62,012 nt of DNA from an uncultured Candidatus Saccharibacteria bacterium (GCA_964597145.1 CAZQWH010000005.1:1-62012); one strand, 5' to 3'; shown: positions 30,439-61,984, counted from the stretch's first letter. Numbers and translations are program-made. Notes: a model not told the origin generated them from the letters alone.

Positions 30439-31109
30439 GCCAAGCCTGGAGTATACACCGCATAGGCGTAATCAGGACGAACCGGATCTACAAAAGCCCG
30501 GAGCTCAGGCTGGCCAGCTGGCCGAGGGTTAAAGTAGGTGCTATCATGGCTCGTCGGCTCGGTGCAATAGGGTGTAGTCGAGTAGAAGTCTCCAGTATTG
30601 AGTACCGATTTTGGTGGGGTGCAAAACGCAAATAATTTGTAATCAGTATTATTTGGCGGCGAAGGGGAGTAGTAAACATAGCCAGCATACGAGTTGCTGG
30701 GAATAGGGTTGCAGGCACTGCCTTGGTTGGTCCGCGTGTCTTGGGGTAAGTACTTAATAAATCCGTCAATAACTAAATGAGGTATCCAGTTATTAATACC
30801 CTTGGCCTGGTAATCCGCATAGGTACAATCTTGGCACCAATATTCACCATTAGTAGAAGGGTATTTGCCTCTATGCGCCGTGGCGTAATTTTCCAACGCG
30901 TTGCGAAGCACCGACAGATCGGTTTGGCGCTGGCTGTTGCCAGCTTCAGCAATTCGAGTAGCTGGGTTAACCGCAATTAAGACAATAGTCGCCAAAATAC
31001 TAACAATGGCGATCACCAGCAACATCTCGACTAAAACAAACCCTTGCGAGGCGCGCGACCACCGCGATAATTGTTGTAGCAATGGAAAATGGGCAGAACT
31101 ACCAACCAT
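30429..31109 (-). CDS. type IV pilin / T2SS pseudopilin-like protein
   Basis: GFVLVEMLLVIAIVSILATIVLIAV prepilin helix, followed by RQTDLSVLRNALENY. Confidence 0.65.
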   Translation of the reverse strand: MVGSSAHFPLLQQLSRWSRASQGFVLVEMLLVIAIVSILATIVLIAVNPATRIAEAGNSQRQTDLSVLRNALENYATAHRGKYPSTNGEYWCQDCTYADYQAKGINNWIPHLVIDGFIKYLPQDTRTNQGSACNPIPSNSYAGYVYYSPSPPNNTDYKLFAFCTPPKSVLNTGDFYSTTPYCTEPTSHDSTYFNPRPAGQPELRAFVDPVRPDYAYAVYTPGLACL

Positions 31110-42511: not shown

Positions 42512-43615
42512 ATGATACATAGTGTTATGAAGATTTTTTGGGTAGTAGCTGGATTGGCCATTATAGTATCTCCATTTATGCATCCTGGTGTGGCAATAGC
42601 TCAATTGCAAAGTGAAAGCTATCAGCTAGACGATTATTCGATTGGCTCTAGCACCACCGATCCGAGTACCGGATCTTCTAACTTTAAATTATTTGGTCAG
42701 GCCGGCAGCAATGATGCGCTCACTGGATCAAGCCAAAACTATACCTACAATGGCGGGTTAATCTATGCCATGCAAGCCAATTCTCCCGCCACGCCAACAT
42801 TCGAAAACCCCGTCGATTATTATGATCGGCTCAAATTTACCCTAGACCCCGGCGATGATCCAACCGACTATGTCTATGCTCTGGCTATAAGCCAAGATGA
42901 TTTCGCCACCACCCAATATATTTCAAACGACCTAACCCTTGTCGATACCTTGGCCGCCGACGATTGGCAGACATTTGCCCAATGGGGTGGAGCCACGGGA
43001 GCAGTAGTAACCGGCCTAGCGGCTAATACCGAATACGCCATTAAAGTCAAAGCCAAGCAAGGCACCTTTACCGAATCAAGTTATAGCCCAACGGCGACAG
43101 CTAGCACGGTCTGGCCCAGCCTAACGTTTAGTGTAAACGGCGATGCCGATATGGGTACCTGGCGTGAAGAAAACAACTACAGTTCAACCGCCGTTTCAAC
43201 TTTAACCACCTCAACCAACGCCTATAATGGATACAGCATTTATGCCTTCGCCACCGGAGCCCTAACCCGGCAAAATGGCAGCGAAACGATTGCCAATATA
43301 TCTGGTAGCTACGCCAACCCCATTGCCTGGTTGAGCGGAATAGGATTTGGCTACACCACTAACGACACTTCCATTGCCGGAGCGCCAAAATGGAACCAAA
43401 ACCCTTGTCCGGGCGATAGCGGCCCACCCCTATGTTACGCCGCTTTTAGTCAGACTGGGCCAGGCGATGTTGTGGTCGATCATGAGGCTGTTTTAGGTGA
43501 GTCAACCATCTCGGATGAAGAATTTAGTTTAACCTATAAAGTTGTTACCCAAGCCACGCAAACCGCCGGCACCTATTCCACCACCATCGTCTACACCGTA
43601 GTCCCAACTTATTAG
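42512..43615 (+). CDS. secreted protein with an FN3-like domain and a WxL-like (Y-variant) C-terminal domain
   Basis: 367 aa with a signal peptide. Its C-terminus ATQTAGTYSTTIVYTVVPTY shares the motif ATQTAGxY...I.Y...P with the ORF at 53500-54687. Confidence 0.5.
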   Translation: MIHSVMKIFWVVAGLAIIVSPFMHPGVAIAQLQSESYQLDDYSIGSSTTDPSTGSSNFKLFGQAGSNDALTGSSQNYTYNGGLIYAMQANSPATPTFENPVDYYDRLKFTLDPGDDPTDYVYALAISQDDFATTQYISNDLTLVDTLAADDWQTFAQWGGATGAVVTGLAANTEYAIKVKAKQGTFTESSYSPTATASTVWPSLTFSVNGDADMGTWREENNYSSTAVSTLTTSTNAYNGYSIYAFATGALTRQNGSETIANISGSYANPIAWLSGIGFGYTTNDTSIAGAPKWNQNPCPGDSGPPLCYAAFSQTGPGDVVVDHEAVLGESTISDEEFSLTYKVVTQATQTAGTYSTTIVYTVVPTY

Positions 43616-43756: not shown

Positions 43757-44581
43757 ATGCCCAACATAGTTATTATTGCGGTTCTATTTTGTATCTTTGT
43801 CATCGCGCTATCAGTAGTGTATGTTTGGTTGCATCGTCGTGAACAAAAACTGTTACGCGAGCTAGACGAAACCAAACGGCAGGCTTCGGATGGCGCTTTT
43901 TTGGAAAAAAGATTGAAAGAAATCCAGGCCCGCGCTCTCGATCATGAGCAAAAAATACTTAATGAAGCCGAAGACCAGGCCAACCACGTGGTTGATAACG
44001 CCCAAACTCAAGCTCAAAAAGTAGTTACTCAAGCCCAAGCCGAGGCCAATCGATCTCTAACCGAAGCCAAGCAACATTCCACTGCCTTAGCCACTGGCGC
44101 CGAAACCCAAGCCAAACAGCTGGTAGCCGAGGCAGCCCAGGCCATGCAACTAGCTGAACAAAAATTCCAGCAAGAGGCCCAGGCCAAACTCACTCCGGTA
44201 TACGATAAGGCTGCCAATGATGTGGCGGCTGCCACCGGCACGCTCAACCAAAAGACTCAAGATTTATTTGCTCGCTTAGAATCCGAAATGTTGACCCAAA
44301 TTAAAAGTCGACAGCAAGAGCTAGACAGCAAAATGAACGAAGAGTGGGCCCAAGCTCGGACCGAAATTCAAGACTATAAGACTCAAAAACAGCAAGAGTT
44401 AGATGAGTGGAAAGCCAACTCCGAAGCTGAGTTAGAAAAAACTATCTTAAACCTCATTTCAGATACCCTAAAAGAAACCATCCACGTTACCCTAACCCCC
44501 AAGGAGCACCAGCAATTAGTATTTGAAGCCTTAGAACGAGCCAAGGAGAGTCATGCCTTCGACGCCCCAGATCCAAAGTGA
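43757..44581 (+). CDS. atpF: F-type ATP synthase subunit b-like (unusually long)
   Basis: 274 aa. Single N-terminal TM helix, then a long A/Q/E-rich coiled coil. Lies directly upstream of the delta subunit gene. Promoter at 43671-43699. Confidence 0.6.
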   Translation: MPNIVIIAVLFCIFVIALSVVYVWLHRREQKLLRELDETKRQASDGAFLEKRLKEIQARALDHEQKILNEAEDQANHVVDNAQTQAQKVVTQAQAEANRSLTEAKQHSTALATGAETQAKQLVAEAAQAMQLAEQKFQQEAQAKLTPVYDKAANDVAAATGTLNQKTQDLFARLESEMLTQIKSRQQELDSKMNEEWAQARTEIQDYKTQKQQELDEWKANSEAELEKTILNLISDTLKETIHVTLTPKEHQQLVFEALERAKESHAFDAPDPK

Positions 44582-45092
44582 TTTAATGGCATTAGTCCGC
44601 TCATTGCCCACCGTCAAAGACGCGGTCCAAGCCAAACAAGGCTTGCGCAGTTTGCGCGATGAGCTGCTCTATCGTCATGCCGACCAGCCACTATCCTTAA
44701 CCGATACTGCCAAAATGGAAGAGTTGGAAATTAGTGAATTAGTACAAGCCTGGTTTAATTCGCCAGCCGGAGAGTCGATTGTTGAGGATATTAAATCAGT
44801 GGGAGCCGATGATGTACTGCAAGAATTTGAGGCAGCCCTTAAGCAAGTCGAGTTGGTCCAGCTTAACTTAGCCTACGCCGCCCCTACTCAAGACCTATCT
44901 CGTTATCACCGCTGGTTTAACCAAGTAATTGGTAAGTCGGTGATGCTAGATGTCCAGGTGGATCGGCAGCTCCTAGCCGGTGCCAGTTTTGTTTACCAAA
45001 ATCATTTACACGATTACAGCCTGCAGCAACAAATGCCGGAAATTGAGGCCCTGCTTTTGCAGAAAGCCAAGGCTGTCGGGAGTAGTGGGTAG
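44553..45092 (+). CDS. atpH: F-type ATP synthase subunit delta (OSCP)
   Basis: 179 aa with the C-terminal OSCP-like block VMLDVQVDRQLLAGASFVYQNHLHDYSL. An alternative ATG at 44586 would avoid the overlap with atpF. Confidence 0.6.
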   Translation: MPSTPQIQSDLMALVRSLPTVKDAVQAKQGLRSLRDELLYRHADQPLSLTDTAKMEELEISELVQAWFNSPAGESIVEDIKSVGADDVLQEFEAALKQVELVQLNLAYAAPTQDLSRYHRWFNQVIGKSVMLDVQVDRQLLAGASFVYQNHLHDYSLQQQMPEIEALLLQKAKAVGSSG

Positions 45093-45129
45093 GATGTTGA
45101 CGAGATAATTACAATACTTAAATTATTTC

Positions 45130-45200
45130 GTCATCCTGGAGCCGAAGGCGATAGGATCTCTGAGATTCTATCTCTCCGCTGCGCTTCGCTCCAGAATGAC
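45130..45200. repeat. two hairpin modules facing each other between atpH and atpA
   Basis: GTCATCCTGGAGCCGAAGGCGATAGGATC (+), then GATTCTATCTCTCCGCTGCGCTTCGCTCCAGAATGAC (-). Confidence 0.85.
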
Positions 45201-45218
45201 TGAGTAATCTCAAAATTT

Positions 45219-46862
45219 ATGATTAAAACCTACGACGAATACATTAATGCTAATCACGAAACCGGATCCATTTTATCGGCTCAAGGTTTCTCGGCCATGG
45301 CCAAGGGGTTGCCTCAAGTAGCGGTTAACGAGCTCGTTTTAACCGAGACCGGCGCCTTGGGAATTGTCAACGCGTTGGGGGAGGATACCACCGAGATTCT
45401 CATGATCGACCGCAGCGGAGCGTCTAAAGGCGAGCCGTTGGTGGCAGTTAACGAACTGCTGTCGGTGCCAGTGGGCGATGCCCTATTAGGTCGGACGGTC
45501 AGTCCATTGGGGGTAATACTAGATGGTGGCGAGCCGTTAGGCGAAACCGAAATGCGGCCACTAGAGCAAGATGCCCCACCCATTTACATGCGCGACCGCA
45601 TCAACCAGCAGCTCATTACGGGGGTAATGCTATCCGATTTATTGGTCCCACTTGGTCGGGGTCAGCGCGAAGTGGTTATGGGTGACGCCAAGTCGGGTAA
45701 AACCAGTTTTCTGCTCCAAATTTTAATGCATGTTAAAGATGAAAACATGATAGGTATTTATGTTGGCATAGGTAAAACTCGTGCTGAGCTACGTCGTATT
45801 TCTACCTTACTAACCGAAAATACCGGCTTTCCCATTGTGGTAGTGGCTGCCTCGGCGTCCGATTCCACAACCTTACAGTATCTGGCCCCCTATGCTGGAA
45901 TGACGATGGCGGAGCATTTTAGAGATAAAGGCCAAGAAGTCTTTTTAGTGCTAGATGACTTAGGTAACCATGCTCGAGCTCACCGCGAAATTTCCTTACT
46001 CAACAATCGCCTGCCAGGCCGTGATTCGTATCCAGGAGATATTTTTTACACCCACTCTCGGTTGCTCGAGCGTGCCGGAAAAGTTAAAGGCCAAGATGGC
46101 CAAGGCCACACCATCACCCTTATGCCTATCATCGAAACCATTGGTGGCGATTTAACTGGATACGTCCAAACCAACCTTATTTCAATGTCAGATGGCCACA
46201 CCCTGTTTGATCTAGAGACGTTTTATAAAGGTATTCGACCAGCCATCAATATTGGGCTGTCGGTGTCTCGTGTAGGTAAACAAACCCAAACTAAATTACA
46301 AAAGTACGTGGCCAGCGAGCTACGAACTATGTTAGCCCAATACGATGATGCTAAAAACTTTGTCCGATTTGGCGCAGAGTTAACCGACACAACCAAGGCG
46401 CTGTTTTTAAAAGGTACAATTTTTGAGGAACTAATTAAGCAGGACCTATCCACCTATCTGCGCCGGGAACAACAGTTAACAATTATGCTAGCTCTCCTCG
46501 ATGGTTTTTTTGATCCCTATCCAATTAATCAAATCCTTGAAGTCCGGTACTTTTTACTCGAAACTCTAGCCAACCCTAAGCATGAGCCATTAGTTAAAGC
46601 GCTGGCCGAAAGCGCCGACGAGTCGGTCCGCAAGCCGCTTCAAGAAGCATTATATGCCGAGTTAAAGCAGCGCATTCAAGCCCAGAAGCCCGCCACCGAA
46701 GATCCGCAGACAGTCAAATCACCAGACAGTCAACCACCAAGCGATTCGGCTCAGCCAAATCAGGAAGCGAAAGGCTCGCCTAGCGCAAACTCCGACCAAG
46801 CCAGTGGAATGCAAGATGCGAAGCAAAAGCCCGAGGAGGCGGGGAAGAAGGAGAAAACTTAA
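45219..46862 (+). CDS. atpA: F-type ATP synthase subunit alpha
   Basis: 547 aa. Walker A GDAKSGKTS, LVLDDL, PGRDSYPGDIFYTHSRLLERA. Short low-complexity C-terminal tail. Confidence 0.9.
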   Translation: MIKTYDEYINANHETGSILSAQGFSAMAKGLPQVAVNELVLTETGALGIVNALGEDTTEILMIDRSGASKGEPLVAVNELLSVPVGDALLGRTVSPLGVILDGGEPLGETEMRPLEQDAPPIYMRDRINQQLITGVMLSDLLVPLGRGQREVVMGDAKSGKTSFLLQILMHVKDENMIGIYVGIGKTRAELRRISTLLTENTGFPIVVVAASASDSTTLQYLAPYAGMTMAEHFRDKGQEVFLVLDDLGNHARAHREISLLNNRLPGRDSYPGDIFYTHSRLLERAGKVKGQDGQGHTITLMPIIETIGGDLTGYVQTNLISMSDGHTLFDLETFYKGIRPAINIGLSVSRVGKQTQTKLQKYVASELRTMLAQYDDAKNFVRFGAELTDTTKALFLKGTIFEELIKQDLSTYLRREQQLTIMLALLDGFFDPYPINQILEVRYFLLETLANPKHEPLVKALAESADESVRKPLQEALYAELKQRIQAQKPATEDPQTVKSPDSQPPSDSAQPNQEAKGSPSANSDQASGMQDAKQKPEEAGKKEKT

Positions 46863-46955
46863 AACTCAAAGCGTAAAACCACAGCTAAAAGGTAAAAGTT
46901 TTTAGTTTTGACTTGTGGTTTTGAGTTTTGATCTTTGACTTTTGAGTTTAGTTTT

Positions 46956-47864
46956 ATGAAAAAACTAAAACAAATTGAACAAGAATTAAACGATGTTGGC
47001 ATGCTACGGGATTTAACGTCCACTTTTGAATCAATCGCCGCTCAGAATCTGGCCAATACCCGCAACAAAGTACTCTCGGCCCGGGCTTTTCTAGAAGAAG
47101 CCCAGAAAGTCTATACCGAAGCTCGGGACATCTTTATTGCCGATCATAAACTAGTCGAAAAAAAGTTAGAGTACCACCAGCAATTATCAATTAAGCAAGA
47201 CAATGGTAAACATTTATCCATCGTTATTGCTCCCAATACCAAGCTATATGGAGCCTTGCCCGATCAATTACTAAATGCCGTTACCGAAGAAATTCGTAAA
47301 GAGCCTCGCGACGTCTTGGTGTTGGGCAAAGTAGCCGAAGATCATTTTAGTCGCCTCAAACCACCAATACCCTACACCTCAATCCCGGTAGAAGATGAGG
47401 ATTTTACGATTGAGCAGATAAGTAAAATTGTGCATCATGTCTCAGCCTACCGCAAAGTAACCGCTTATTATAACCACTTTCGCACCATCTTAACCGCCGA
47501 TGTATTGGAAGCACCGTTAAATTTGGTCGCTGCCGAGAGTAATCAAGACCAGCCTCCCTCACCCGAACCCGAGCCAAAAGGTTTAGCTAAATTTATTAAA
47601 AAAGATGATGCCTTGTTTGAACCCAGCTTAGAAGAAGTCCTTAACTTCTTTGAAACGACCATTCTCAAAACCTTACTCCGGCAAAAGGTTCGAGAGTCGC
47701 TCTTATCCCGCTATGCCGCCCGAATGGTGGCAATGGATGTAGCCACCGAAAACGCCAAAACTGCCGCCAAAGGGTTGCACCGAGATATGCGCCGAGCCAA
47801 ACGGCTCAAAGCCAACCAACGAATGCTCGACTCGTACTCGGGAATGAGTCTGTGGAAGGGCTAG
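46956..47864 (+). CDS. atpG: F-type ATP synthase subunit gamma
   Basis: ATG at 46956. C-terminus SRYAARMVAMDVATENAK..RRAKRLKANQ is typical of gamma. Confidence 0.8.
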   Translation: MKKLKQIEQELNDVGMLRDLTSTFESIAAQNLANTRNKVLSARAFLEEAQKVYTEARDIFIADHKLVEKKLEYHQQLSIKQDNGKHLSIVIAPNTKLYGALPDQLLNAVTEEIRKEPRDVLVLGKVAEDHFSRLKPPIPYTSIPVEDEDFTIEQISKIVHHVSAYRKVTAYYNHFRTILTADVLEAPLNLVAAESNQDQPPSPEPEPKGLAKFIKKDDALFEPSLEEVLNFFETTILKTLLRQKVRESLLSRYAARMVAMDVATENAKTAAKGLHRDMRRAKRLKANQRMLDSYSGMSLWKG

Positions 47865-47886
47865 GACGCTGGAAGCGTTTTAGCCC

Positions 47887-50709
<2,823 letters not shown>

Positions 50710-50741
50710 TATTTAGCCATTAGTATTTAGTATCTAGAAAA

Positions 50742-50769
50742 TTACAATTAAAATCCATTACCAGATACC
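50742..50769 (+). repeat. 28-nt motif TTACAATTAAAATCCATTACCAGATACC, copy 2
   Basis: See 43634-43661. It runs directly into the CCAGATA array. Confidence 0.85.
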
Positions 50770-50809
50770 AGATACCAGATACCAGATACCAGATACCAGA
50801 TACCAGATA
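50761..50809. repeat. heptamer tandem array (CCAGATA)x7
   Basis: Seven perfect units ending 10 nt before the atpC start codon. Confidence 0.95.
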
Positions 50810-50819
50810 CCTACCCGCT

Positions 50820-51080
50820 ATGGCTTTTGTTAAACCAACCTTTAACCTATTAATTACTAACCCTGAGCGGATCTTTTTTGAAGGCGAAGCGTATAGCTTG
50901 TCCTCAACCAATAATTCGGGGCCATTCGACATCCTACCCAACCATGCCCATTTTATTTCGTTGCTTAACGACGCCACGGTTGAGATACTAGATAAAGATA
51001 ATAAAAAATCAGCCTACAAAATCTCTCGTGGCCTCATTTCGGCCAAAGCTAATAATGTCCGGGTATTTGTGGACTTGTAG
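50820..51080 (+). CDS. atpC: F-type ATP synthase subunit epsilon, N-terminal beta-sandwich only
   Basis: 86 aa (L.I..PE..FFEG.A..L....SGPF.ILPNHA.FI..L). The usual C-terminal helical hairpin is missing. Confidence 0.65.
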   Translation: MAFVKPTFNLLITNPERIFFEGEAYSLSSTNNSGPFDILPNHAHFISLLNDATVEILDKDNKKSAYKISRGLISAKANNVRVFVDL

Positions 51081-51414: not shown

Positions 51415-52389
51415 ATGAAGCGACTTTTGGTTAAACATAGTTATTGGATAATTTTAGCCTGCTGCTTTTTATTTTTTGTGGTGGGCGGGCATGTTCATGG
51501 TCAATCGACCGGCTCGACCACATTCACCTTAACTCCGGCTTTAAAGGAGCTAAAAGTAAATCCTGGCTATACCGGCCAGTTTACCTTAACGTTGCTTAAT
51601 CACAGCCAAGCGGCAGTACCGTTTAAAGTCTATACCCGCAACTTTTTGGCCGATGGTATAGATGGAAAAATTACTTTTGGTGACGATGATAGCTCCAGTT
51701 ATGCTGCTGGAGACTGGTTAATTCCGGCCACCGATTCTATTCTGTTAAACCCCGGTGGAGAACAACAGGTGTCGGTGGCGGTTTCGGTGCCTGCGAACGC
51801 CGAACCCGGAGGGCATTATGCCAGCGTTTTATTTGAACAAATTTTGCCTCAAGGCGTAGCCAGTAAAAACTCTCAAGTCCAAGTAGCCACCCGCATGACG
51901 GCCTTAATTTATTTTACGGTTAGTGGAGACATTGTAGAAGCTGGTCAAATTTTAGGGGCCAAAAGCGGCCAAGCGTGTAGTGCCGTAGTCTGCGGGCTCG
52001 AAGTTCAGCCGTTTTTCGACCATGGTCCCATTCCATTCCATTTTATCTTTAATAACACCGGCAATATCCATGTCCGCCCCAAAGGCACCATTACTATCTC
52101 GCAGTTTGGCCATGAGGTGGCCAAAATACCCGTCCCAGACCGGGCTGTTTTACCTAACAGTCAACGCAAATTTACTACCACCTGGGACAAAGGGCTAGTC
52201 ATTGGCCCGTACCAGGCCAAACTCCACCTCGTCTACGGTTCTAAAAACTACGAACTAACCGCTGCCACCACGTTCTGGGCCTTTCCTTGGCAAATCGCCC
52301 TAGGAGTGGCCTTACTAGCCCTCCTCATTGCCGCGATCATCCTCTCGCGCAAGTACTTTAGGGTAAAGCGGTTACATCATCGAAAGTGA
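51415..52389 (+). CDS. DUF916/DUF3324-like (WxL-interacting, CscA-like) surface protein with a C-terminal TM anchor
   Basis: Signal peptide from the ATG at 51415. PANAEPGGHYASVLF and VLPNSQRKFTTTW motifs. C-terminal helix plus a basic tail. Paralogue of the ORF at 56583-57530. Confidence 0.55.
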   Translation: MKRLLVKHSYWIILACCFLFFVVGGHVHGQSTGSTTFTLTPALKELKVNPGYTGQFTLTLLNHSQAAVPFKVYTRNFLADGIDGKITFGDDDSSSYAAGDWLIPATDSILLNPGGEQQVSVAVSVPANAEPGGHYASVLFEQILPQGVASKNSQVQVATRMTALIYFTVSGDIVEAGQILGAKSGQACSAVVCGLEVQPFFDHGPIPFHFIFNNTGNIHVRPKGTITISQFGHEVAKIPVPDRAVLPNSQRKFTTTWDKGLVIGPYQAKLHLVYGSKNYELTAATTFWAFPWQIALGVALLALLIAAIILSRKYFRVKRLHHRK

Positions 52390-52397
52390 TGATGTAA

Positions 52398-52914
52398 AGA
52401 ATGCGGAATACGGGATGCAGGATACGGAAATAATTAACTCGTTTTCTGGAAGGCTTTAATCAATCCAAGAATAAGTTTACTAACTCGCGAGCTTTGGTTG
52501 GCTAAGAGCCCGAATTGCTCTGTATTTAAATAACCCAGGTCTCTACATATTAGTAATTGATTTTGCACTTCTTTGATTGAACCGTAAGCAATAAAGAGAA
52601 ATTGCACCTTCTCTTTATTGGATAGCCTAGCGAATCCCTCGGCAATATTACTAGTTATCGAAACAACTGCTCGCTGCAACTGGTCGACAAGATTATACCT
52701 TTCGCTGTTTGGTAACACTTTAAGTTCTTTGTAGACGAGCAATACGAGTTTATGCCCTTCTTGCCAGGCAACCAGGTCAGTAAATGAATTGAGTTTTGTG
52801 CTTTTCTGCTCTGATGACATGGGCCTACTATATACCTTTGGTCAATACCGCATCCTGATTTCTGTATTCCGCATCCCATATCCCATATTCCCGTATTCCC
52901 GCCTCCCGCATTCT
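52398..52914 (-). mobile_element. cassette: four-helix-bundle gene flanked by inverted heptamer arrays
   Basis: Left GAATGCG GAATACG GGATGCA GGATACG (52399-52427). Right CCGCATC CTGATTT CTGTATT CCGCATC CCATATC.. (52848-52914). Perfect 11-nt inverted pair ATGCGGAATAC / GTATTCCGCAT. Confidence 0.5.
52434..52820 (-). CDS. four-helix-bundle protein (23S rRNA IVS / Avd-like family)
   Basis: 128 aa. DLVAWQEGHKL..LPNSERYNLVDQLQRAVVSITSNIAEGFAR..GSIKEVQNQLLICRDLGYL. Confidence 0.8.
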   Translation of the reverse strand: MSSEQKSTKLNSFTDLVAWQEGHKLVLLVYKELKVLPNSERYNLVDQLQRAVVSITSNIAEGFARLSNKEKVQFLFIAYGSIKEVQNQLLICRDLGYLNTEQFGLLANQSSRVSKLILGLIKAFQKTS

Positions 52915-53036
52915 AGCTACATTCAAAAACAACACCGCACCATTAACCCGCTACAACAGCTAATTAACATATTGACAAGCAAGCAAGAACTTGTCATCAT
53001 GGAACAAGCAGGCGTTTTGCCTGGCTGATTTCAGTT

Positions 53037-53273
53037 GTCATGCTGAACTCGTTTCAGCATCTGGCTACTCCAGTTAGATCCTGAAATAAATTCAGGATGA
53101 TAGCAAGATAAAGGAGGTGGTAGCAAACACATAAATACCTAAATATTTATGCTAGTAGGCGCTAGATTGCGCCTGGTGCTTTTACCCGACGGGCTCCGTC
53201 ATTCTAGCGCGGTTGTCATCCTGAATTTATTTCAGGATCTAACCAATAGATGCTGAATCAAGTTCAGCATGAC
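53037..53273. mobile_element. 237-bp MITE-like element with composite terminal inverted repeats of about 60 bp
   Basis: The left arm is GTCATGCTGAAC..TTCAGCATC plus GATCCTGAAATAAATTCAGGATGA. The right arm is GTCATCCTGAATTTATTTCAGGATC plus GATGCTGAATCAAGTTCAGCATGAC. There is no ORF inside. Confidence 0.6.
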
Positions 53274-53499
53274 AGGGTCTTAAGGTAAAAATATGTCTGC
53301 CAAATAGGCAACAGCATAGCAATATACTTAAACTTATTAGCAGGCGTAACCAAGCGCCTATTCAGAGAAAATTCGAAAGTTCAAAAATCGCCAAATGGCG
53401 AAACGGATGCGGGACCTAAGAATAAATCACTAAATTCAATATCCCACATCCCAAATTCAAAATTGTCGGCTTCGTCCGGCAGAAAGATGACAAAGATAT

Positions 53500-54687
53500 A
53501 TGAAATTATCTACTGTCCACAAACAGCGTCTTGCCAAACTAGGTCGCGTGACCTTGGCAGGTGCTATGGTTGTGAGTTCATTGAGCGTATCAGTAGTTGC
53601 TCCCGCTCAGGCTGCACAGTTAGCCCAAAACTCAACTACCATTTCAGATTCTGGTACGTCTGCTGTCACCACCTATGTGATTAGTTTTCAACCACCATCT
53701 TCATCCCTAACCACCCTTATTGACCAGGTGGATGTTAAGTTCTGCGCTGAAGCAGGTAACTGGGCTGATACGTGCAATGCTCCAGCTGGTTTTAACCTGG
53801 ATGCTGGACTAAGTACCGGTAACACCAGTATATCCTCTACTTTTGGTGCTGGCGGCGGTACAGCAGGTACCCTAAATACAGTAACTCGTGACAGTGCTTC
53901 TTCGATGCATATCACCATTACTGCAGGTACCGGTACGGCAGAAACAGCCGTTGCCCATACTATCACCATGACTAATGTGGTAACCAATCCGAGTGGTGCA
54001 GCAACCTACTATACTCGAGTAAAAACCTCAACCGATGTACCAGCTGACATTGACGTTGGTGAATCAGCTTTTGCGATTTTGAGCCCAGTCACTGTTTCTG
54101 GTCGTGTATTGGAAACTCTTACTTTTAACGTTGGACTAGTTGGAAGCGGTTCTGCTTGTGGAACATACGAGAATTCCACTGTTGCAAGTACTACAGCTAC
54201 AGTGCCATTTGGTAACTTTGTTTCAGGTACTCCGCGCGTTGGATGCCAAACAATTGCTACTGGCACCAATGCTGATGGTGGATACGCAACTACTATTAAA
54301 GAAGTAAATGGTGGTGTGGCACCAGTTGGCGGCATGTGTCGACAGACAGCACTAAATTGCAACGCCAGTGGAGGGCAGACCGGTGTAGCTTCAACCGATG
54401 TTATCGGTGATACAGTGCTAAATGCTACTCCTGCTGCCTGGACTAATAACACTACCTTTGGTCTCGGTTTTGGGGTGAGTGGTGCCGATAAGGACTCAGC
54501 TTTCACCGTTGATGACACTTATCGATCCTTGTTTGGGGTAAATCCAATAAACGTTTCAAGCGATCCTAATCCAACTACAACTGGAGATAGTACAGTGTAT
54601 GTAGTCTTTAAGGCTGATGTAACTGCTACCCAAACCGCTGGTAACTACCAAAATGCGATTGAGTACATTACGACTCCACTATTCTAA
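53500..54687 (+). CDS. secreted WxL-like (Y-variant) surface protein
   Basis: 395 aa. Signal peptide ..VVAPAQA. TLTFNV..VPFGNF..GTNADGGYATTIKE. C-terminus ATQTAGNYQNAIEYITTPLF. Strong terminator at 54711-54740. Confidence 0.5.
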   Translation: MKLSTVHKQRLAKLGRVTLAGAMVVSSLSVSVVAPAQAAQLAQNSTTISDSGTSAVTTYVISFQPPSSSLTTLIDQVDVKFCAEAGNWADTCNAPAGFNLDAGLSTGNTSISSTFGAGGGTAGTLNTVTRDSASSMHITITAGTGTAETAVAHTITMTNVVTNPSGAATYYTRVKTSTDVPADIDVGESAFAILSPVTVSGRVLETLTFNVGLVGSGSACGTYENSTVASTTATVPFGNFVSGTPRVGCQTIATGTNADGGYATTIKEVNGGVAPVGGMCRQTALNCNASGGQTGVASTDVIGDTVLNATPAAWTNNTTFGLGFGVSGADKDSAFTVDDTYRSLFGVNPINVSSDPNPTTTGDSTVYVVFKADVTATQTAGNYQNAIEYITTPLF

Positions 54688-54710
54688 TTCACTTAGATAT
54701 TAGGAACCAC

Positions 54711-54740
54711 AAAAACTCCCGCTTTAGGCGGGAGTTTTTG
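54711..54740 (+). terminator. rho-independent terminator
   Basis: AAAAACTCCCGC-tttag-GCGGGAGTTTTT. Confidence 0.8.
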
Positions 54741-54999
54741 GTTGGGTAATACATGTACATTTTTATTTGGCGATGTTTTCATGTCCTGATTAGCCTAAAA
54801 AAGCCTGCATGTCGGTAGACAGGTTTGGAACGACAGTGAGATGGTGTCATGCTGAGTTTGTTTCAATGTCTAGACTGTGTCTTTATCCGGTATTTAGATC
54901 CTTCACTTCGTTCAGGATGGCAAGGGGAGTGGGCCAATAGCAGAACTAAATCAAAAGATAGCCAAAAACTCTCACTTCGGTAGGAATTTTTTGTTTGGA

Positions 55000-55035
55000 C
55001 TAATAAAAGTTATATTTAAATATAACTTTTATTAG
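55000..55035. repeat. perfect 36-nt AT-rich palindrome
   Basis: CTAATAAAAGTTATATTT/AAATATAACTTTTATTAG with no loop, followed by TTTTT. Confidence 0.9.
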
Positions 55036-55306
55036 TTTTTGTAAGTATATATTTTACAACCTAATTACCGTCTAGCATGCCATTCTTGCGTAAGTTTTTG
55101 ATTCTACCCACTCAATTACAGTCAGGGCATCCTGAGTTGTATCGAGGGATGAGGACAAAGTCTGTCTTCGAGAGCCTAACGACTCTTCAGAGTCTTGAAC
55201 GGCAGACTCAGACTATCAGGGTATTTCGTCATTGCGAGCACTGAATCAAGTTCAGCACAGGCTCCGCGCGGCAATCTAGGCTGGATAGTTGTAGTATGCT
55301 TAGAAT

Positions 55307-55441
55307 ATGACTAAGCAGCCCCGTGTTTACGTCTTAACTAATGCCACTCGATGTGTGCTTTATGTTGGTGTTACTTCAAACTTAGCCAAGCGCATATTTG
55401 AGTATAAGAGCAGTGCTGCCCCCGGATTTACTCAAAAATAG
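55307..55441 (+). pseudogene. GIY-YIG nuclease gene remnant (premature TAG, 3' part lost)
   Basis: Encodes MTKQPRVYVLTNATRCVLYVGVTSNLAKRIFEYKSSAAPGFTQK, then TAG where the paralogue at 59676-59921 has Y (GFTQKYHVH). Downstream sequence has diverged. Confidence 0.55.
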
Positions 55442-55480
55442 CACATTGAATTCCATTGTTCTGCATGGTAAAGTCGGGCT

Positions 55481-55678
55481 ATGTTAAACGATAAAGAACT
55501 GCAACAATATAATGAAGTCGTACAAAAATCTATTCGACAAGAGCTAGAACCTATCAAGGAAGATATTAAAAAGATTCGCCAAAACCAGCAAACAATTTCT
55601 AACTTTTTCGATAGTGAATATCTCGAGCTTCGTCATCGTGTGGAAAAGCTGGAGCAAATTGTAGCCTCAATAACCTAA
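55481..55678 (+). CDS. hypothetical small coiled-coil protein
   Basis: 65-aa charged helical ORF lying inside the element that also holds the GIY-YIG remnant. Confidence 0.3.
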   Translation: MLNDKELQQYNEVVQKSIRQELEPIKEDIKKIRQNQQTISNFFDSEYLELRHRVEKLEQIVASIT

Positions 55679-55790
55679 ACTTCTCAAATTAAACAGAACT
55701 AAAAGTTTTTGATTCCTGCTTGCGCAGACATGGTAATGAAATAAAAAGATTGCCACGTCGTCACCACTCCTCGCAATGACAGCGAGTTGA

Positions 55791-55814
55791 TGTTACGTAG
55801 CATGTTACGTAACA
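55791..55814. repeat. TGTTACGTAGCA-TGTTACGTAACA tandem palindromes
   Basis: One mismatch relative to 16395-16418. Confidence 0.9.
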
Positions 55815-55817
55815 AAA

Positions 55818-55910
55818 GATTCTATCTCTCCACTTCGTTTCGTTCCAGAATGACTTACATTATTAGAGATTGCTGTACTACCTTCGTCAAAGGCCGACAG
55901 GCGCAATGAC
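55818..55910 (-). repeat. two reverse-orientation hairpin modules
   Basis: GATTCTATCTCTCCACTTCGTTTCGTTCCAGAATGAC (55818-55854) and GATTGCTGTACTACC..GGCGCAATGAC (55868-55910). Confidence 0.8.
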
Positions 55911-55934
55911 GGATTAGTATAAGCCAGAAGATGG

Positions 55935-56424
55935 GGTATGGAATTTAGGATGTAGGATACAGGAGATAGTATTTAGTAGCTAGGATTTGGTTTTGAATGA
56001 TTTGATTAATCCGTGCAATAGTTTGCCCACAACAATCATCTGTTTTTCTAAAGTAAGGTATTGTTCGCTAGAGATGTATCCAAGGTCTTTTGCTATTGTT
56101 AACTGGTTTTCAACCTCTTTAACTGATCCTAATGAAATGTAGAAGAATTGAATTTTTCTTTGAATGATTGTCGAGTAAATCCCTCGGCAATATTACTCGT
56201 AATAGAAACGGCGGCTCGCTGCAATTGATCAACCAAGTTGTATTTTTCTGAGTTTGGTAATTTAGATGTCTCATTATAAATTTGCAGCACTAATTTATGA
56301 CCTTCCTGCCACGCAATGAGATCTTTAAATGAATGTAGTAATCCCTTATCTGTGGTTAACTGCATGCAGATATTTACACCGACTAGTCAAGCACACTACA
56401 TCCTACATCCTAAATTCCATATCC
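55935..56424 (-). mobile_element. cassette: frameshifted four-helix-bundle gene flanked by a perfect 22-bp inverted repeat built from heptamers
   Basis: TATGGAATTTAGGATGTAGGAT (55937-55958) and its exact reverse complement ATCCTACATCCTAAATTCCATA (56400-56421). Confidence 0.6.
55980..56365 (-). pseudogene. four-helix-bundle (IVS/Avd-like) gene with a frameshift in an A-run
   Basis: The N-terminal 70 aa align with the ORF at 52434-52820 (DLIAWQEGHKL..NLVDQLQRAAVSITSNIAEGF). After KEK the homologous continuation IQFFYISLGSVKEVENQLTIAKDLGYIS..LIKSFKTKS is in another frame, with its stop at 55980. Confidence 0.65.
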
Positions 56425-56449
56425 TAAAACCAGCTCAGCTGGTTTTATA

Positions 56450-56478
56450 TTGACGCTTGCTTGCTCTATTGGTAGACT
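56450..56478 (+). promoter_or_regulatory. sigma70-like promoter TTGACG-17-TAGACT
   Basis: A second candidate, TTGACA-17-TACTAT, lies at 56496-56524. Both are upstream of the CscA-like gene. Confidence 0.45.
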
Positions 56479-56582
56479 GATAAAGCAGGCCCATGCTTGA
56501 CAGTGTCTCTGGGGATAGCTACTATGTTTATATAGAGCCGATATCAAGAGACGGACCATTATTTATTTTTTATAGGAATATA

Positions 56583-57530
56583 ATGAAAAAACCCTTCCTC
56601 CTCGCGTCTCTGCCCACCGCACTTATTTTTACCTTAGTTTTAAGTCTCATTTCTCCGGTATTTTCCAATCCTGTTCGTGCCCAAGCCGAAGGCGGTACTC
56701 GGATCGGTATTTCACCGGTAACGTTCAATTTAACTGCCAATCCTGGTGATACCCTAGATCAGGTTATTAAAGTTAGGAATGATGCGGCAGCTACTCAACA
56801 AATTACCATAGAAGCGGAAAACTTCACGGCCGTTGGCGAAGAAGGTCAGGTGGCATTGACTGATGAAGATACTAGTTTCAACCTGGCTAGCTGGATAGAG
56901 TTTGAGAGTAGCACCTTTGTTCTTGGTAGTGGTGAAGAAATTCAGGTTCCGTTCCTCATTCGAGTTCCGGGCAATGCGGAGCCAGGTGGTCACTACGCCA
57001 GTGTATTTGCCCATGTCGGCCCGGTAAGTCCAGATGGATCGGGTTCAGCAATTGGCCAAAAAATTGGCTCATTAATACTTTTGCGCGTAGCTGGTGATGT
57101 AGAAGAATCTGCGTCGGTAGAATCATTTGCAGTTGGCAAGTTCGATCCTGGACAACCAGTGCCTTTCGAGATAAGGGTCAAGAACCAAGGCTCGGTGCAT
57201 ATCCGCCCTGCAGGATTCGTGACAATTAACGACTTTATGGGTAATAAGGTTAAGGATGTTAGCATTGAAGATAGCAATATATTCCCTGGAGCAATTCGGA
57301 AGATACACGCAACTTGGGAAGACCCTGGATTTATCGGCCGGTATACGGCCAATGCCCTGATGTACTATGGCGATACTAACCAACAGTTGACTGCCACCAC
57401 CACCTTCTGGATCATCCCTTGGAAAACGGTTGGAATTGTGGCTGGTGCAGCTCTGGTTGTCGTATTGATCCTCTGGTTTGGCCGCCGACGAATTGGCCGA
57501 TCTATCAAAGCTTTGGTATCCGGGAGCTAG
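56583..57530 (+). CDS. DUF916/DUF3324-like (WxL-interacting, CscA-like) surface protein with a C-terminal TM anchor
   Basis: ATG at 56583 (MKKPFLLASL..). PGNAEPGGHYASVFA and IFPGAIRKIHATW motifs. C-terminal TM helix plus RRRIGR tail. Promoter-like sites at 56450-56478 and 56496-56524. Confidence 0.55.
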   Translation: MKKPFLLASLPTALIFTLVLSLISPVFSNPVRAQAEGGTRIGISPVTFNLTANPGDTLDQVIKVRNDAAATQQITIEAENFTAVGEEGQVALTDEDTSFNLASWIEFESSTFVLGSGEEIQVPFLIRVPGNAEPGGHYASVFAHVGPVSPDGSGSAIGQKIGSLILLRVAGDVEESASVESFAVGKFDPGQPVPFEIRVKNQGSVHIRPAGFVTINDFMGNKVKDVSIEDSNIFPGAIRKIHATWEDPGFIGRYTANALMYYGDTNQQLTATTTFWIIPWKTVGIVAGAALVVVLILWFGRRRIGRSIKALVSGS

Positions 57531-57533
57531 AAT

Positions 57534-59531
57534 GTGCGCTCGATTAAACTGCCCAGTTTACTATTTGTAATCTCGTTGTTTGGCCTGCTTTGGCTAGCGG
57601 GAGCAGTGAATCTAGGTAGTTTTGATACGTTTGCTCAGATAAGTAAATGTGATATTTTGACTCCGCAAGGAGTATGTACTATCGATGGGGCGGGCAATCC
57701 CCCGGGGGCAATTGACTTTCAAGTTTCAGTTAGTGGTTTCGTTCCTGAGACCGCCATCCAGCTCAAAGGATATACTGCTCCTGGTGCCTTCGTGATTGTC
57801 AGTGAGGGTACCGATGTAGTGGGCGCGGCTACCGCTGAATCAGATGGTGCTTTTGACTTTACCTTACATGCCCTGCAGGCTGGGTCACCACATGCCCTAT
57901 CCATTATTGCCTCGACTAGTTACCAAACCACACCTGGTACTGGATTTGTGGTTACGCCTGTTGCAAACTCATTGGTTACCGTCGACAACATCACCTTGCC
58001 TCCATTTATTCAGGTTACACCTACCTCAGCTGACTTAGGCAATCCTTTTACTATCTATGGAGAGGCTGCGCCAGGTGCGACCGTCAATGTGTTTGTCGAG
58101 TCACCGCTGGTCAGTGCGACTACGGTTGTTGATGCCAATGGTGACTGGAGTATTGATACCATCACAGAGTTTGGGGTATTGCCCCAGGGGTCATATATCA
58201 CCTACGCCTATCAGTCGGTCGGGGCATTTCAGAGTAATAACTCGCAAATCATCAGTTTTGAAGTTAGAGAAACTCAGAGTACAACCTTCTTAGCCATGAA
58301 TGGGTATGGCCCGCCGGGGGCATTTATGACCATTAAAAATGGTAATACAGTGGTAGGCAGCGGCATTGTTGATGTTGATGGGACATTTAGCAACACTGTT
58401 TCTTTCCCCGATGTTAATGCCACGGTAGATATGAGCATTGTTGTAGATGATGGCGACCAGGTGTCGTTACCAACCGAGTTTAGTGCCAACTTAATCTCCA
58501 CCCAAACTACCACCGTCGACGATATCCTACTCCCCACCTTTATTAGCGTTAGCCCGCTCATAGCCAACGAAGGCTCGGCTATTACCGCCAGTGGTGTGGC
58601 CACTCCCAATGCTACCGTTACCCTAACCATCGAAAGTCCTACCAAGACAGTTGCTCTCACCTCAGATGCAAGTGGTGCCTGGAGTCAGGAGCTGATAGCC
58701 GAGTTTGGCAGCCTGCCTGAGGGTGTCTATACCGCCTCAGCCATAGTCAGCCTGCCAGGGCTAACCGACAGCGTCGAATCTCGCACCATTACCTTTACTG
58801 TCACGGAAGTCACCACCGCTACCGATTTAGTGGTAGAGGGTATGGGTCCGCCCGGCGCCTTTATTAGTTTTACCGAAAATAGCTTGGTAATTGGCACCGA
58901 TACCATTCATGCAGATGGCCAATTCTCGCATACTCTTAAATTTAGCGACCAAACCCTGCCTCATACCATTAGCATTGTGGCCAGCAACGATACCCAACAA
59001 ACCCCACCCACCACCTTTACCGTTACGGTTAATGCCTTCTCGGTTACCACCGTGTCTAATATTATTTTACCAACCTTTATTGAAGTGGTGCCCAAATCGG
59101 TACCGTACGGGGATACCGTTATTGCCAAGGGTACTGCAGTCCCCAATGCCTTAGTTATGGTTTACATGCGCGAACCATTAGTCAGCAAGCCCACCACCAG
59201 CGGGCCAGATGGTAAATGGCAACTAGACCTCAACACTATCGCTGGGACTATTAATAAAGGGAAGTATACTGCCTATGCCCGGGTTACCACCCTACCCGAC
59301 GAATATCAAAGCGGCCTCTCCCGCGAAGTTGAGTTCGAGGTGATTGAAGCCGACGAGTGCGCTATCCGCCGCTCCGACCTCAACTGTGACAACCGGGTCG
59401 ATATTACCGACCTAGGTATTTTAATTTTCTACTGGGGCACTGCCGGAGCCGGCCAAAAAGCCGATATCAACCAAGACGGCACAGTCAATATTCAGGATGT
59501 GGGGATAATGGTGTACGATTGGACGTACTAA
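57534..59531 (+). CDS. secreted protein with three Ig-like repeat pairs and a C-terminal dockerin-like domain
   Basis: 665 aa with a GTG start. Three A-B repeat pairs of about 170 aa (GPPGAF.. / LPTFI..). C-terminus DLNCDNRVDITDLGILIFYW..DINQDGTVNIQDVGIMVYDW gives two Ca-loop dockerin segments. Confidence 0.65.
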   Translation: MRSIKLPSLLFVISLFGLLWLAGAVNLGSFDTFAQISKCDILTPQGVCTIDGAGNPPGAIDFQVSVSGFVPETAIQLKGYTAPGAFVIVSEGTDVVGAATAESDGAFDFTLHALQAGSPHALSIIASTSYQTTPGTGFVVTPVANSLVTVDNITLPPFIQVTPTSADLGNPFTIYGEAAPGATVNVFVESPLVSATTVVDANGDWSIDTITEFGVLPQGSYITYAYQSVGAFQSNNSQIISFEVRETQSTTFLAMNGYGPPGAFMTIKNGNTVVGSGIVDVDGTFSNTVSFPDVNATVDMSIVVDDGDQVSLPTEFSANLISTQTTTVDDILLPTFISVSPLIANEGSAITASGVATPNATVTLTIESPTKTVALTSDASGAWSQELIAEFGSLPEGVYTASAIVSLPGLTDSVESRTITFTVTEVTTATDLVVEGMGPPGAFISFTENSLVIGTDTIHADGQFSHTLKFSDQTLPHTISIVASNDTQQTPPTTFTVTVNAFSVTTVSNIILPTFIEVVPKSVPYGDTVIAKGTAVPNALVMVYMREPLVSKPTTSGPDGKWQLDLNTIAGTINKGKYTAYARVTTLPDEYQSGLSREVEFEVIEADECAIRRSDLNCDNRVDITDLGILIFYWGTAGAGQKADINQDGTVNIQDVGIMVYDWTY

Positions 59532-59590: not shown

Positions 59591-60021
59591 GTCATTGCGA
59601 GGAGTGGAGCGACGTGGCAATCTTGCATATAATCTACTCGTCATCGCGAGCGCAGTACGGCAATCCTAGTTAGAGTTATTGAGTTAACTTCTGGTACAAA
59701 TCTTCCCAAAGTGGGTTAGCTTGCTCAATCAACCGTAGCTTCTTTTCCCTCGAGCCAGCCTTAAGTTGCTTCTCCCGTTTAATGGCAGACTCGATGTCTT
59801 CAAATACTTCAAAATAAACTAATTTGTGGACATGATATTTTTGAGTGAAACCTACTATTGAATTTGATCTGTGTTCAAAAATTCGCTTAGTTATATTACT
59901 GGTTACGCCAATGTACAACACGCAGCCAGTTTTATTTAGTAATTAATATAAACATAGGATTGCTTCATAACTGAGATTTTACTCCAGTATGGCAAGATTG
60001 CCACGCTACGCTCGCAATGAC
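59591..60021 (-). mobile_element. GIY-YIG gene flanked by inverted GTCAT..GCAATC hairpin modules
   Basis: Left: GTCATTGCGAGGAGTGGAGCGACGTGGCAATC (59591-59622) and GTCATCGCGAGCGCAGTACGGCAATC (59640-59665), both +. Right: GATTGCCACGCTACGCTCGCAATGAC (59996-60021), -. Confidence 0.5.
59676..59921 (-). CDS. GIY-YIG nuclease family protein (N-terminal strand appears frameshifted off)
   Basis: 81 aa from a GTG: LYIGVTSNITKRIFEH..KYHVHKLVYFEVF..AIKREKQLK. The expected N-terminus (ATG at 59955, MFILI..) is in another frame. Confidence 0.6.
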   Translation of the reverse strand: MLYIGVTSNITKRIFEHRSNSIVGFTQKYHVHKLVYFEVFEDIESAIKREKQLKAGSREKKLRLIEQANPLWEDLYQKLTQ

Positions 60022-61845: not shown

Positions 61846-61984
61846 GAGAATACAAAATACAGGATGTGGAATGCAGTAGTAATGAGGTTCCTGCACCCTG
61901 CGCCTTCTGTTTGGCTTGTCGTACTTGTTTCAGTTGTCATCCTGAACTTGTTTCAGTTGTCATCCTGAACTTGTTTCAGGATCT
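61846..61984. repeat. degenerate heptamers, then a tandem duplication of the 22-nt unit TTGTCATCCTGAACTTGTTTCAG
   Basis: GAGAATA CAAAATA CAGGATG TGGAATG (61846-61873). GTCATCCTGAACTTGTTTCAG occurs twice, the second copy closing as ..TTTCAGGATC (61925-61984). Confidence 0.8.

Follow-up and report, generated by a model that had tools for sequence, protein, structure and literature searches.

A probable Pam-type pilus locus from the candidate phyla radiation with membrane-anchored proteins remotely homologous to Firmicutes WxLIP

Bacteria of the candidate phyla radiation (CPR, or Patescibacteria) are thought to live attached to host cells, with surface fibres as prime candidates for host contact, and in Firmicutes the function of WxL/Csc gene clusters has been debated since 2006. 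Here we describe a gene region in a stretch of DNA from an uncultured Candidatus Saccharibacteria bacterium (GCA_964597145.1 CAZQWH010000005.1:1-62012; this whole stretch of 62,012 nt is referred to below as the window). In this region, genes for two secreted, pilin-like proteins, Sec1 and Sec2, alternate with genes for two membrane-anchored two-domain proteins, Anc1 and Anc2 (Table 1), and we consider the region likely to be a Pam-type pilus (surface fibre) locus of a CPR bacterium.

The Pam pilus system was recently described in the ultra-small CPR bacterium Ca. Mycosynbacter amalyticus, from which two filaments were solved by cryo-electron microscopy (cryo-EM) (Troman et al., bioRxiv 10.64898/2026.03.03.709456). 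According to this preprint, Pam pilins are Sec-exported and have paired cysteines and a conserved C-terminal domain with a truncated immunoglobulin (Ig) fold, and their genes are interleaved with those of PamC and PamD, FimC/PapD-like two-domain chaperones with an unusual C-terminal transmembrane (TM) helix, PamD having an extra hairpin at its hinge. The pam operon also encodes PamE, PamT, and PamR, a TM-anchored protein with two FnIII domains; ATP synthase genes are conserved neighbours of the operon, a conserved "tail fibre-like protein" is encoded in its neighborhood, and the NCBIfam families NF058581 (CPR_Pam_pilin_C) and NF058579 (CPR_pilus_PamT) belong to the system (10.64898/2026.03.03.709456). 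The M. amalyticus accessions given there are WP_260763277.1 for PamC, WP_260763284.1 for PamD, WP_260763282.1 for PamR, WP_260763287.1 for PamA, WP_260763280.1 for PamB, and WP_260763289.1 for PamT, and the one printed for PamE, WP_26076385.1, seems to be cut short; in Table S1 of the preprint, the PamC label stands on a 119-kDa protein outside the operon, and an unlabeled 36.5-kDa protein, QHN43268.1, has an accession adjoining those of the operon genes.

A second system relevant here is found in Lactobacillales and Bacillales, where Csc/WxL clusters combine a WxLIP protein (DUF916/PF06030 and DUF3324/PF11797 domains plus a TM helix) with WxL-domain proteins (Siezen 2006, PMC1534035; Hassan et al. 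2023, PMC10599100). A WxL cluster has been defined as having one or more WxLIPs and two or more WxL proteins in a span of four genes, and a hairpin strand of WxLIP has been predicted to complete the WxL sandwich (Hassan et al. 2023, PMC10599100).

An earlier, sequence-only reading of the window had described the four proteins as two Csc/WxL-like surface-complex modules in which tyrosine replaces the signature tryptophan, and had suggested that such a complex in a CPR-like genome would be new. All four open reading frames (ORFs), with their motifs, signal peptides, and C-terminal membrane anchors, were found where that reading had placed them, and since Anc1 and Anc2 are paralogs and the Sec family profiles align over the C-terminal domain, the underlying observation is confirmed. 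The similarities among the Anc and Sec proteins are well beyond chance, and each of the four genes has numerous relatives among public sequences.

Sec1 ends in QATQTAGTYSTTIVYTVVPTY and Sec2 in TATQTAGNYQNAIEYITTPLF, so that the former terminates P-T-Y and the latter P-L-F. By BLASTP the two proteins share only their last 37 residues (E 0.003), but comparison of the two family profiles with hhalign extends the C-terminal motif noticed earlier to an entire common domain (137 columns, probability 95.1%, E 3.1e-8), aligning residues 234-395 of Sec2 with residues 212-367 of Sec1. Sec1 matches NF058581 over model positions 5-148 of 148 (E 1.7e-7), 117 of its 118 relatives also match this model (best E 6.9e-15), and the PamT model NF058579 is matched by 102 of these 118 (best E 1.4e-17), with a weak Pfam fn3 match in 76; among nine Sec2 relatives, two match NF058581 (best E 2.4e-5). 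The layout of Sec1 is a signal peptide, an N-terminal extension (about residues 30-90), an FN3-like sandwich (about 95-200), and the Pam-pilin C-terminal domain (about 200-367), and its AlphaFold model (predicted local distance difference test score, pLDDT, 85.3) shows a signal helix, a low-confidence extension, the FN3-like sandwich, and, at residues 200-367, a C-terminal beta domain predicted with confidence. In Sec2, the Pam-pilin domain spans about residues 234-395, and the protein has three invariant Cys pairs. Judged from their sequences, both secreted proteins have the conserved C-terminal domain of Pam pilins, with P-x-(Y/F)-COOH as its exact end. Pfam returned nothing specific for either protein, and PDB sequence searches gave only noise for Sec1 and Sec2 and, with the Sec1 family profile, only FN3 domains, in a copy of the PDB that apparently lacks the PamA and PamB entries (25PZ, 25QA). 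Within the low-confidence N-terminal extension of Sec1 (about residues 30-90) lie three S-x-(N/S)-(Y/F)-x-(L/Y) repeats; we considered these S-x-N-Y-x-L repeats as a general donor strand and dropped the idea, as they are confined to the Sec1 subfamily of about 360 aa.

The presence of the Pam pilin domain (NF058581, NF058579) of a CPR pilus already described in a 2026 preprint means that the novelty claimed by the sequence-only reading does not stand in the form in which it was put. We place the locus within the Pam-type pilus system as a divergent copy of its gene cluster, and hence as nothing new in kind. What is unreported in the searchable literature is the link from Pam to WxL/Csc through the anchored proteins: the Pam preprint is silent on WxL, DUF916, and Csc, and no paper in that literature joins WxL/DUF916/Csc with CPR.

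Anc1 and Anc2 are paralogs with 32% identity over 308 residues (BLASTP E 1e-49). Both contain NAEPGGHYASV and the motif (L/F)P..(Q/I)RK...TW, present as LPNSQRKFTTTW in Anc1 and FPGAIRKIHATW in Anc2, and both begin with a hydrophobic, signal-peptide-like segment and end in a hydrophobic helix followed by a basic tail. In Anc1, two Ig-like domains lie between the signal peptide and the C-terminal TM helix with its basic tail, and in the BLASTP alignment the protein differs from Anc2 by a 14-residue Cys-containing insertion at the domain hinge (Cys188, Cys193). In Anc2, a DUF916/WxLIP_PGBD-like domain 1 (residues 41-170) is followed by domain 2 (177-277) and the TM helix (280-312), and the AlphaFold model (pLDDT 90.8) consists of a pair of beta-sandwich domains with a long helix at the C-terminus (280-312). 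The basic C-terminal tail argues that the TM helix stays in the cell's own membrane.

Several lines of evidence bear out the earlier call of the anchored proteins as DUF916/WxLIP-type. Pfam WxLIP_PGBD (DUF916, PF06030) is matched by 101 of 121 Anc family members (best E 1.5e-9), with the window proteins themselves falling below the gathering score (Anc1 E 0.0049; the other Anc protein E 0.018), and one Anc relative is named "WxL protein peptidoglycan domain-containing protein" by NCBI. We assembled ten WxL loci from Firmicutes plasmids and built a profile of 10 WxLIPs; hhalign aligned this profile with the Anc family over 271 columns that begin at the first strand and reach to the TM helix (probability 98.6%, E 1.2e-15), domain 1 alone gave E 4.1e-11, and an HMM (hidden Markov model) of the ten WxLIPs found 67 CPR Anc ORFs at E<1e-3. 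The nearest structures to the Anc2 model by Foldseek are Enterococcus faecium WxLIP free (9i1y_A) and bound to a long WxL protein (9i25_C), both at E 7.5e-12, the match to 9i1y covering both domains over 261 columns, followed by the chaperone-usher chaperones CfaA, CsuC, YadV, FimC, Caf1M, PapD, and DraB (E 1e-9 to 1e-7, target TM-score 0.46-0.57); RbmA is also among the matches, with a poor superposition. A search of PDB sequences with the Anc family profile likewise gave EfmWxLIP1 as best match (E 0.025). No Pfam match to PapD_N/PapD_C or to an usher was obtained in the Anc family or in the neighboring ORFs scanned. The DUF916 half of the proposed DUF916/DUF3324 layout is well borne out; the DUF3324 half is not detectable on its own by sequence: Pfam finds no DUF3324 in the window Anc proteins or in the Anc family, and WxLIP domain 2 (DUF3324/WxLIP_HBD) alone aligned in register over 72 columns without reaching significance (hhalign E 0.017, against 0.04-0.34 for reversed and cross-domain controls). 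The NQIDKxxxYFDLK motif of WxLIP is absent from the Anc family, where an 11-column hhalign gap falls at NQIDK and only (T/Y)F(E/D/N)L is kept. Taken together, the Pfam family matches, the Foldseek results, and the WxLIP profile comparison show that Firmicutes WxLIP proteins are distant homologs of Anc1 and Anc2, which share the fold of chaperone-usher periplasmic chaperones.

The locus resembles the Pam pilus system in its CPR origin, its presumably Sec-exported subunits with paired cysteines and a conserved C-terminal truncated-Ig domain, its two membrane-anchored, two-domain, chaperone-like proteins whose genes alternate with those of the pilins, one of them with an extra hinge element, its neighboring ATP synthase genes, and its lack of an usher; the three invariant Cys pairs of Sec2 resemble PamB. 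It differs in that the window sequences are only remotely similar, below NCBIfam cutoffs, that the middle domain of Sec1 is FN3-like and its N-terminal extension bears repeats, that F1 and stalk genes of the ATP synthase lie inside the window cluster, and that a conserved dockerin-bearing partner gene, unnamed in the preprint, is present. With chaperone-usher pili (Pap/Fim classical, CFA/I alternative, Csu archaic), the locus shares the two-Ig-domain chaperone fold seen by Foldseek, subunits that end in an aromatic residue after a beta-strand of alternating hydrophobic residues, and, presumably, the donor-strand principle, but it has no usher and no outer membrane, its chaperone is tethered by a TM helix and has no PapD_N/PapD_C Pfam match, and its subunits have extra N-terminal domains.

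These comparisons suggest how such a locus may work. Sec1 and Sec2 would be exported by Sec, and the Anc proteins would be fixed in the cell's own membrane, their basic tails facing inward. Each Anc protein may then capture the incomplete Ig-like C-terminal domain of a Sec1 or Sec2 subunit by strand insertion, the likely inserted strand being the conserved QKIGSLILLRVAG segment that follows a flexible loop (residues 141-159), keep the subunit folded at the membrane surface, and pass it to the growing fibre by donor-strand exchange; neither an usher nor an outer membrane would be involved. We infer the strand complementation and the usher-less hand-over from models in the Pam preprint and from what Hassan et al. 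(2023) predicted for WxLIP and WxL, and polymerization of the fibre likewise.

The cassette recurs across CPR genomes. A scan of a genome collection with the Anc profile returned 137 relatives and 80 loci, M. amalyticus not being among them, and 79 CPR loci were examined with local HMMs. The metagenome-assembled genomes with Anc genes bear the labels CPR2, WWE3, Berkel-, Parcu-, Woese-, Uhr-, Terry-, Beckwith-, and Moraniibacteria, Microgenomates, and "Saccharibacteria," and the Anc family comprises 18,761 clusters (50% identity) at E<=1e-3, 11,709 at 1e-10, and 3,301 at 1e-30. A pilin-type gene lies directly upstream of 66 of the 99 Anc genes with enough upstream sequence, 36 loci have at least two Anc genes, and the typical order is a Sec1-type C-terminal-domain protein, a divergent Anc, a Sec2-type pilin, an Anc2 ortholog, and a dockerin-ending Ig-repeat protein. 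The pilin-type ORFs mostly end in Y or F (77/85), often with P at position -3 (55/85), and ATP synthase genes are found no more than 10 kb away in five loci (L001, the closest relative, and L048, L065, L075, and L076). Anc2 is the best-conserved cassette component and the one type whose members group tightly as orthologs, and upstream Anc genes could not be clearly assigned as Anc1 orthologs. The protein encoded by the first gene of the cassette carries the Sec1-type C-terminal domain and is either about 360 aa long or very large, reaching 2,556 aa; in many CPR genomes it is a giant version (1,300-2,556 aa; L010, L013, L025, L035, L036, L042, L068, and others) with this domain at its end, which parallels the "large WxL protein" of Firmicutes. 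As the locus described here shows, Pam-type cassettes also occur outside the close relatives of M. amalyticus. A CPR-type Anc2-dockerin pair was also seen on contigs whose record titles read "uncultured Pseudomonadales" or "Gammaproteobacteria" (L009, L017, L020, L034, L037, L038, L043-L046, L053, L055, L056, L064, L071, L072, L074, and L079), several of which carry the full pilin cassette, and these labels are probably wrong.

Several observations weigh against assigning the window to a Pam-type pilus. Sec1 scores 31.5 bits against the curated NF058581 cutoff of 55 bits, and Sec2 itself has no NF058581 match. Foldseek matches of full-length Sec1 are dominated by FN3, with no pilin-type or WxL match among the top 50, whose E-values extend to 4.5e-4, except the CfaE tip adhesin (rank 27), and the N-terminal domain of Sec1 is FN3-like, with no donor strand identified in it. 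No separate PamT, PamE, or PamR gene was recognized in the window, and the Anc family is matched by no Pam-named NCBIfam model; the correspondence of Anc with PamC/PamD (or, for one of them, with a PamR-like tether) is a putative one, drawn from fold, layout, and synteny. Among the 79 loci, 28 have an Anc2-dockerin pair and no pilin detectable nearby.

The most plausible alternative, though we regard it as rather unlikely, is a static complex of the Csc/WxL type, the type named by the sequence-only reading, in which Anc1 and Anc2 are anchors that bind and display Sec1 and Sec2 non-covalently, the C-terminal domain is a diverged WxL domain with Y for W, and nothing polymerizes. The likeness to Csc/WxL clusters is extensive: the anchored protein is homologous to WxLIP, which is also the nearest solved structure, and is built alike, with a signal peptide, a pair of Ig domains, and a TM helix at the C-terminus; the cassette mirrors clusters of large WxL, small WxL, and WxLIP proteins in that a large and a small secreted protein have a common C-terminal domain; and in both systems a strand of the anchored protein is predicted to insert into its client. 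Both families also have a terminal hairpin, Y-x-T-T-(L/V)-x-(W/Y), with the signature aromatic residue 6-8 residues from the C-terminus. When we compared a profile built from 16 WxL domains of Firmicutes, of which 13 carry a WxL annotation, with the profile of the Pam C-terminal domain using hhalign, the best local alignment was this terminal hairpin, with the distal WxL Trp opposite Tyr361 of Sec1 (the Y of "IVY"), and at a relaxed threshold the match was collinear, pairing the FG motif and proximal GWxL with the invariant TNAxxGY/GYxV of the Pam domain. The score of 19.2-21.5 exceeded that of all 300 column and block shuffles (maximum 15.9) and of every real-profile control (about 9-17.1).

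Against the static complex, however, the same comparison has an hhalign probability of only 1-3% (E 0.02-0.05), Pfam WxL (PF13731) has no match at E<=1 in Sec1, Sec2, or the 118 Sec1 relatives, and the custom WxL HMM gives no match at E<=10 in the window or the 79 CPR loci. The secreted proteins are not detectable as WxL proteins, and the WxL call of the sequence-only reading is unproven; its proposed exchange of Y for W corresponds to a real resemblance of the motifs, which sets W opposite Y and beats the shuffles but is statistically unconvincing. The hairpin similarity is suggestive, not proof, and as seen in these profiles it could reflect either deep homology or convergence on the same terminal hairpin. 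Also unlike a Csc/WxL cluster, the locus belongs to CPR and not Firmicutes, has tyrosines at the positions of the WxL tryptophans, lacks the two detectable WxL-domain proteins (dual Trp-x-Leu) by which such clusters are defined, lacks the NQIDK part and a sequence-detectable DUF3324 in its anchored proteins, and has no CscD-type LPXTG C-terminus in any window ORF of at least 70 aa. Finally, relatives of these C-terminal domains have been seen as polymerized pilins by cryo-EM (10.64898/2026.03.03.709456).

We tentatively propose, as a possibility that falls well short of being probable, that CPR Pam pili and Firmicutes Csc/WxL complexes are two branches of one ancient, usher-less, single-membrane system in which a tethered two-Ig-domain protein (WxLIP or PamC/D-like) completes the incomplete Ig-like C-terminal domain of its client by strand insertion, with WxL being homologous to the Pam pilin C-terminal domain and having Trp for Tyr (GWxL vs GYxV; TWxL vs (I/V)xY). 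If this is true, either WxL proteins can polymerize or Pam-type subunits can also be held as static surface complexes. The homology of Anc to WxLIP in itself ties the WxL/Csc clusters to a structurally characterized pilus system, suggests one mechanism for both, namely strand complementation by a membrane-tethered chaperone, and argues that the TM helix of WxLIP sits in the bacterium's own membrane.

A further alternative concerns the gene directly downstream of Anc2, a component that the sequence-only reading had not listed. Its product has four Big_6 ("Ca_tandemer") repeats (Pfam E 5e-22) and a Dockerin_1 domain above cutoff (E 6.9e-7; matched in the PDB by a dockerin at E 0.016), and it could be the real client of Anc2, which would anchor or fold it, with the adjacency to pilin-like genes being secondary. 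A dockerin-ending homolog directly follows 74 of 75 Anc2-type ORFs in the CPR loci, even in some where no pilin gene lies close by; some such pairs without a detected pilin-type gene are placed among glycolysis genes, and the "tail fibre-like protein" conserved in the pam neighborhood could be seen in the same light. We nevertheless consider this very unlikely, because homologs of Anc (WxLIP, and by fold the chaperone-usher chaperones) bind incomplete Ig-type domains and not dockerins, because pilin-type genes so often lie directly upstream of Anc genes, and because Pfam and PDB sequence searches gave no cohesin signal in Anc or in the Ig-like protein encoded further downstream. By eye, the N-terminus of this latter protein had looked like a cohesin for the neighboring dockerin, a likeness to which the Pfam and PDB searches lent no support. 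Within a Pam-type pilus, the dockerin-bearing Ig-repeat protein is probably an accessory adhesin or a tip or base component. The Ig-like protein encoded after it has Pfam Big_13 and Big_6 Ig-like domains, an OmpL47-type barrel, and a charged tail after its C-terminal TM helix, with no Pam-named NCBIfam match; phmmer finds homologs in 52 of 79 CPR loci, a count inflated by repeat domains.

That Sec1 and Sec2 are instead SCPU/spore-coat-U proteins, the alternative named by the sequence-only reading, or have another unrelated fold with a chance C-terminal motif, as the mere 37 common residues found by BLASTP might suggest, is effectively refuted by the alignment of the family profiles over the entire C-terminal domain, by the same NCBIfam domain being matched by relatives in both Sec families, and by the conserved synteny with Anc genes, and no SCPU/Spore_coat_U (PF05229) match was found at E<=1 in Sec1 or Sec2 or among the families listed for the 118 relatives.

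Table 1. Genes of the putative pilus region and its immediate context, in window coordinates
Feature	Coordinates	Strand	Description
Sec1	42512-43615	+	367 aa; secreted pilin-like subunit
ATP synthase b, delta, alpha, gamma, beta, epsilon and one 23S-rRNA-IVP-family gene	43757-51080	+	Pfam and NCBIfam matches; context, no demonstrated functional part
Anc1	51415-52389	+	324 aa; WxLIP-like, putative membrane-tethered chaperone
Sec2	53500-54687	+	395 aa; secreted pilin-like subunit
Anc2	56583-57530	+	315 aa; best-conserved cassette component
Ig-repeat protein with C-terminal type I dockerin	57534-59531	+	Secreted; candidate adhesin or accessory
Ig-like protein with signal peptide and C-terminal TM helix	60183-61826	+	Possible anchored accessory; assignment tentative

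Among the surrounding genes, no ATP synthase a or c subunit gene was seen directly upstream of atpF, where Sec1 takes that place. In the ATP synthase beta subunit (737 aa), a C-terminal tail of about 270 aa is of low complexity and rich in Ser, Gln, Pro, and Glu, and a shorter such tail is present on alpha. A heptamer, CAGATAC, forms a tandem run at 50755-50823 in the atpD-atpC intergenic region, and a related sequence lies upstream of atpD at 48445-48499.

Small genes of the "23S rRNA intervening sequence protein" (IVP) and GIY-YIG families are scattered among the pilus and ATP synthase genes at 47963-48364 (+), 52434-52820 (-), 55307-55441 (+), 56129-56365 (-), and 59676-59921 (-). Two of them are intact IVP genes and one is a truncated IVP remnant, and the GIY-YIG family is represented by an intact gene and a fragment. 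Inverted repeats of 25-27 nt flank the IVP gene at 52434-52820 (52401-52427/52848-52874) and the IVP remnant at 56129-56365 (55934-55958/56400-56424), and these repeat-bracketed copies look as if they were small inserted cassettes. A palindromic element, TCATCCTGAA...TTCAGGATGA, occurs in several copies at 53029-53274, 54838-54872, and 61928-61984, on both sides of Sec2 and after the last gene in Table 1, and could represent a family of REP-like (repetitive extragenic palindromic) or terminator-like hairpins. Within the window there was no Rfam or tRNA match, and promoter and terminator consensus scans gave nothing above chance.

Just upstream of Sec1, on the opposite strand, lie genes for a 1,676-aa right-handed beta-helix protein (34910-39940, -) and a secreted S8 subtilase with a fervidolysin-like prodomain (40246-42405, -). 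Further upstream, the products of three genes (28496-29104, +; 29200-30438, -; and 30429-31109, -) have the prepilin-type N-terminal methylation motifs of type IV pilin- or pseudopilin-like proteins, indicating that a second, unrelated pilus type is encoded in the same genome stretch.

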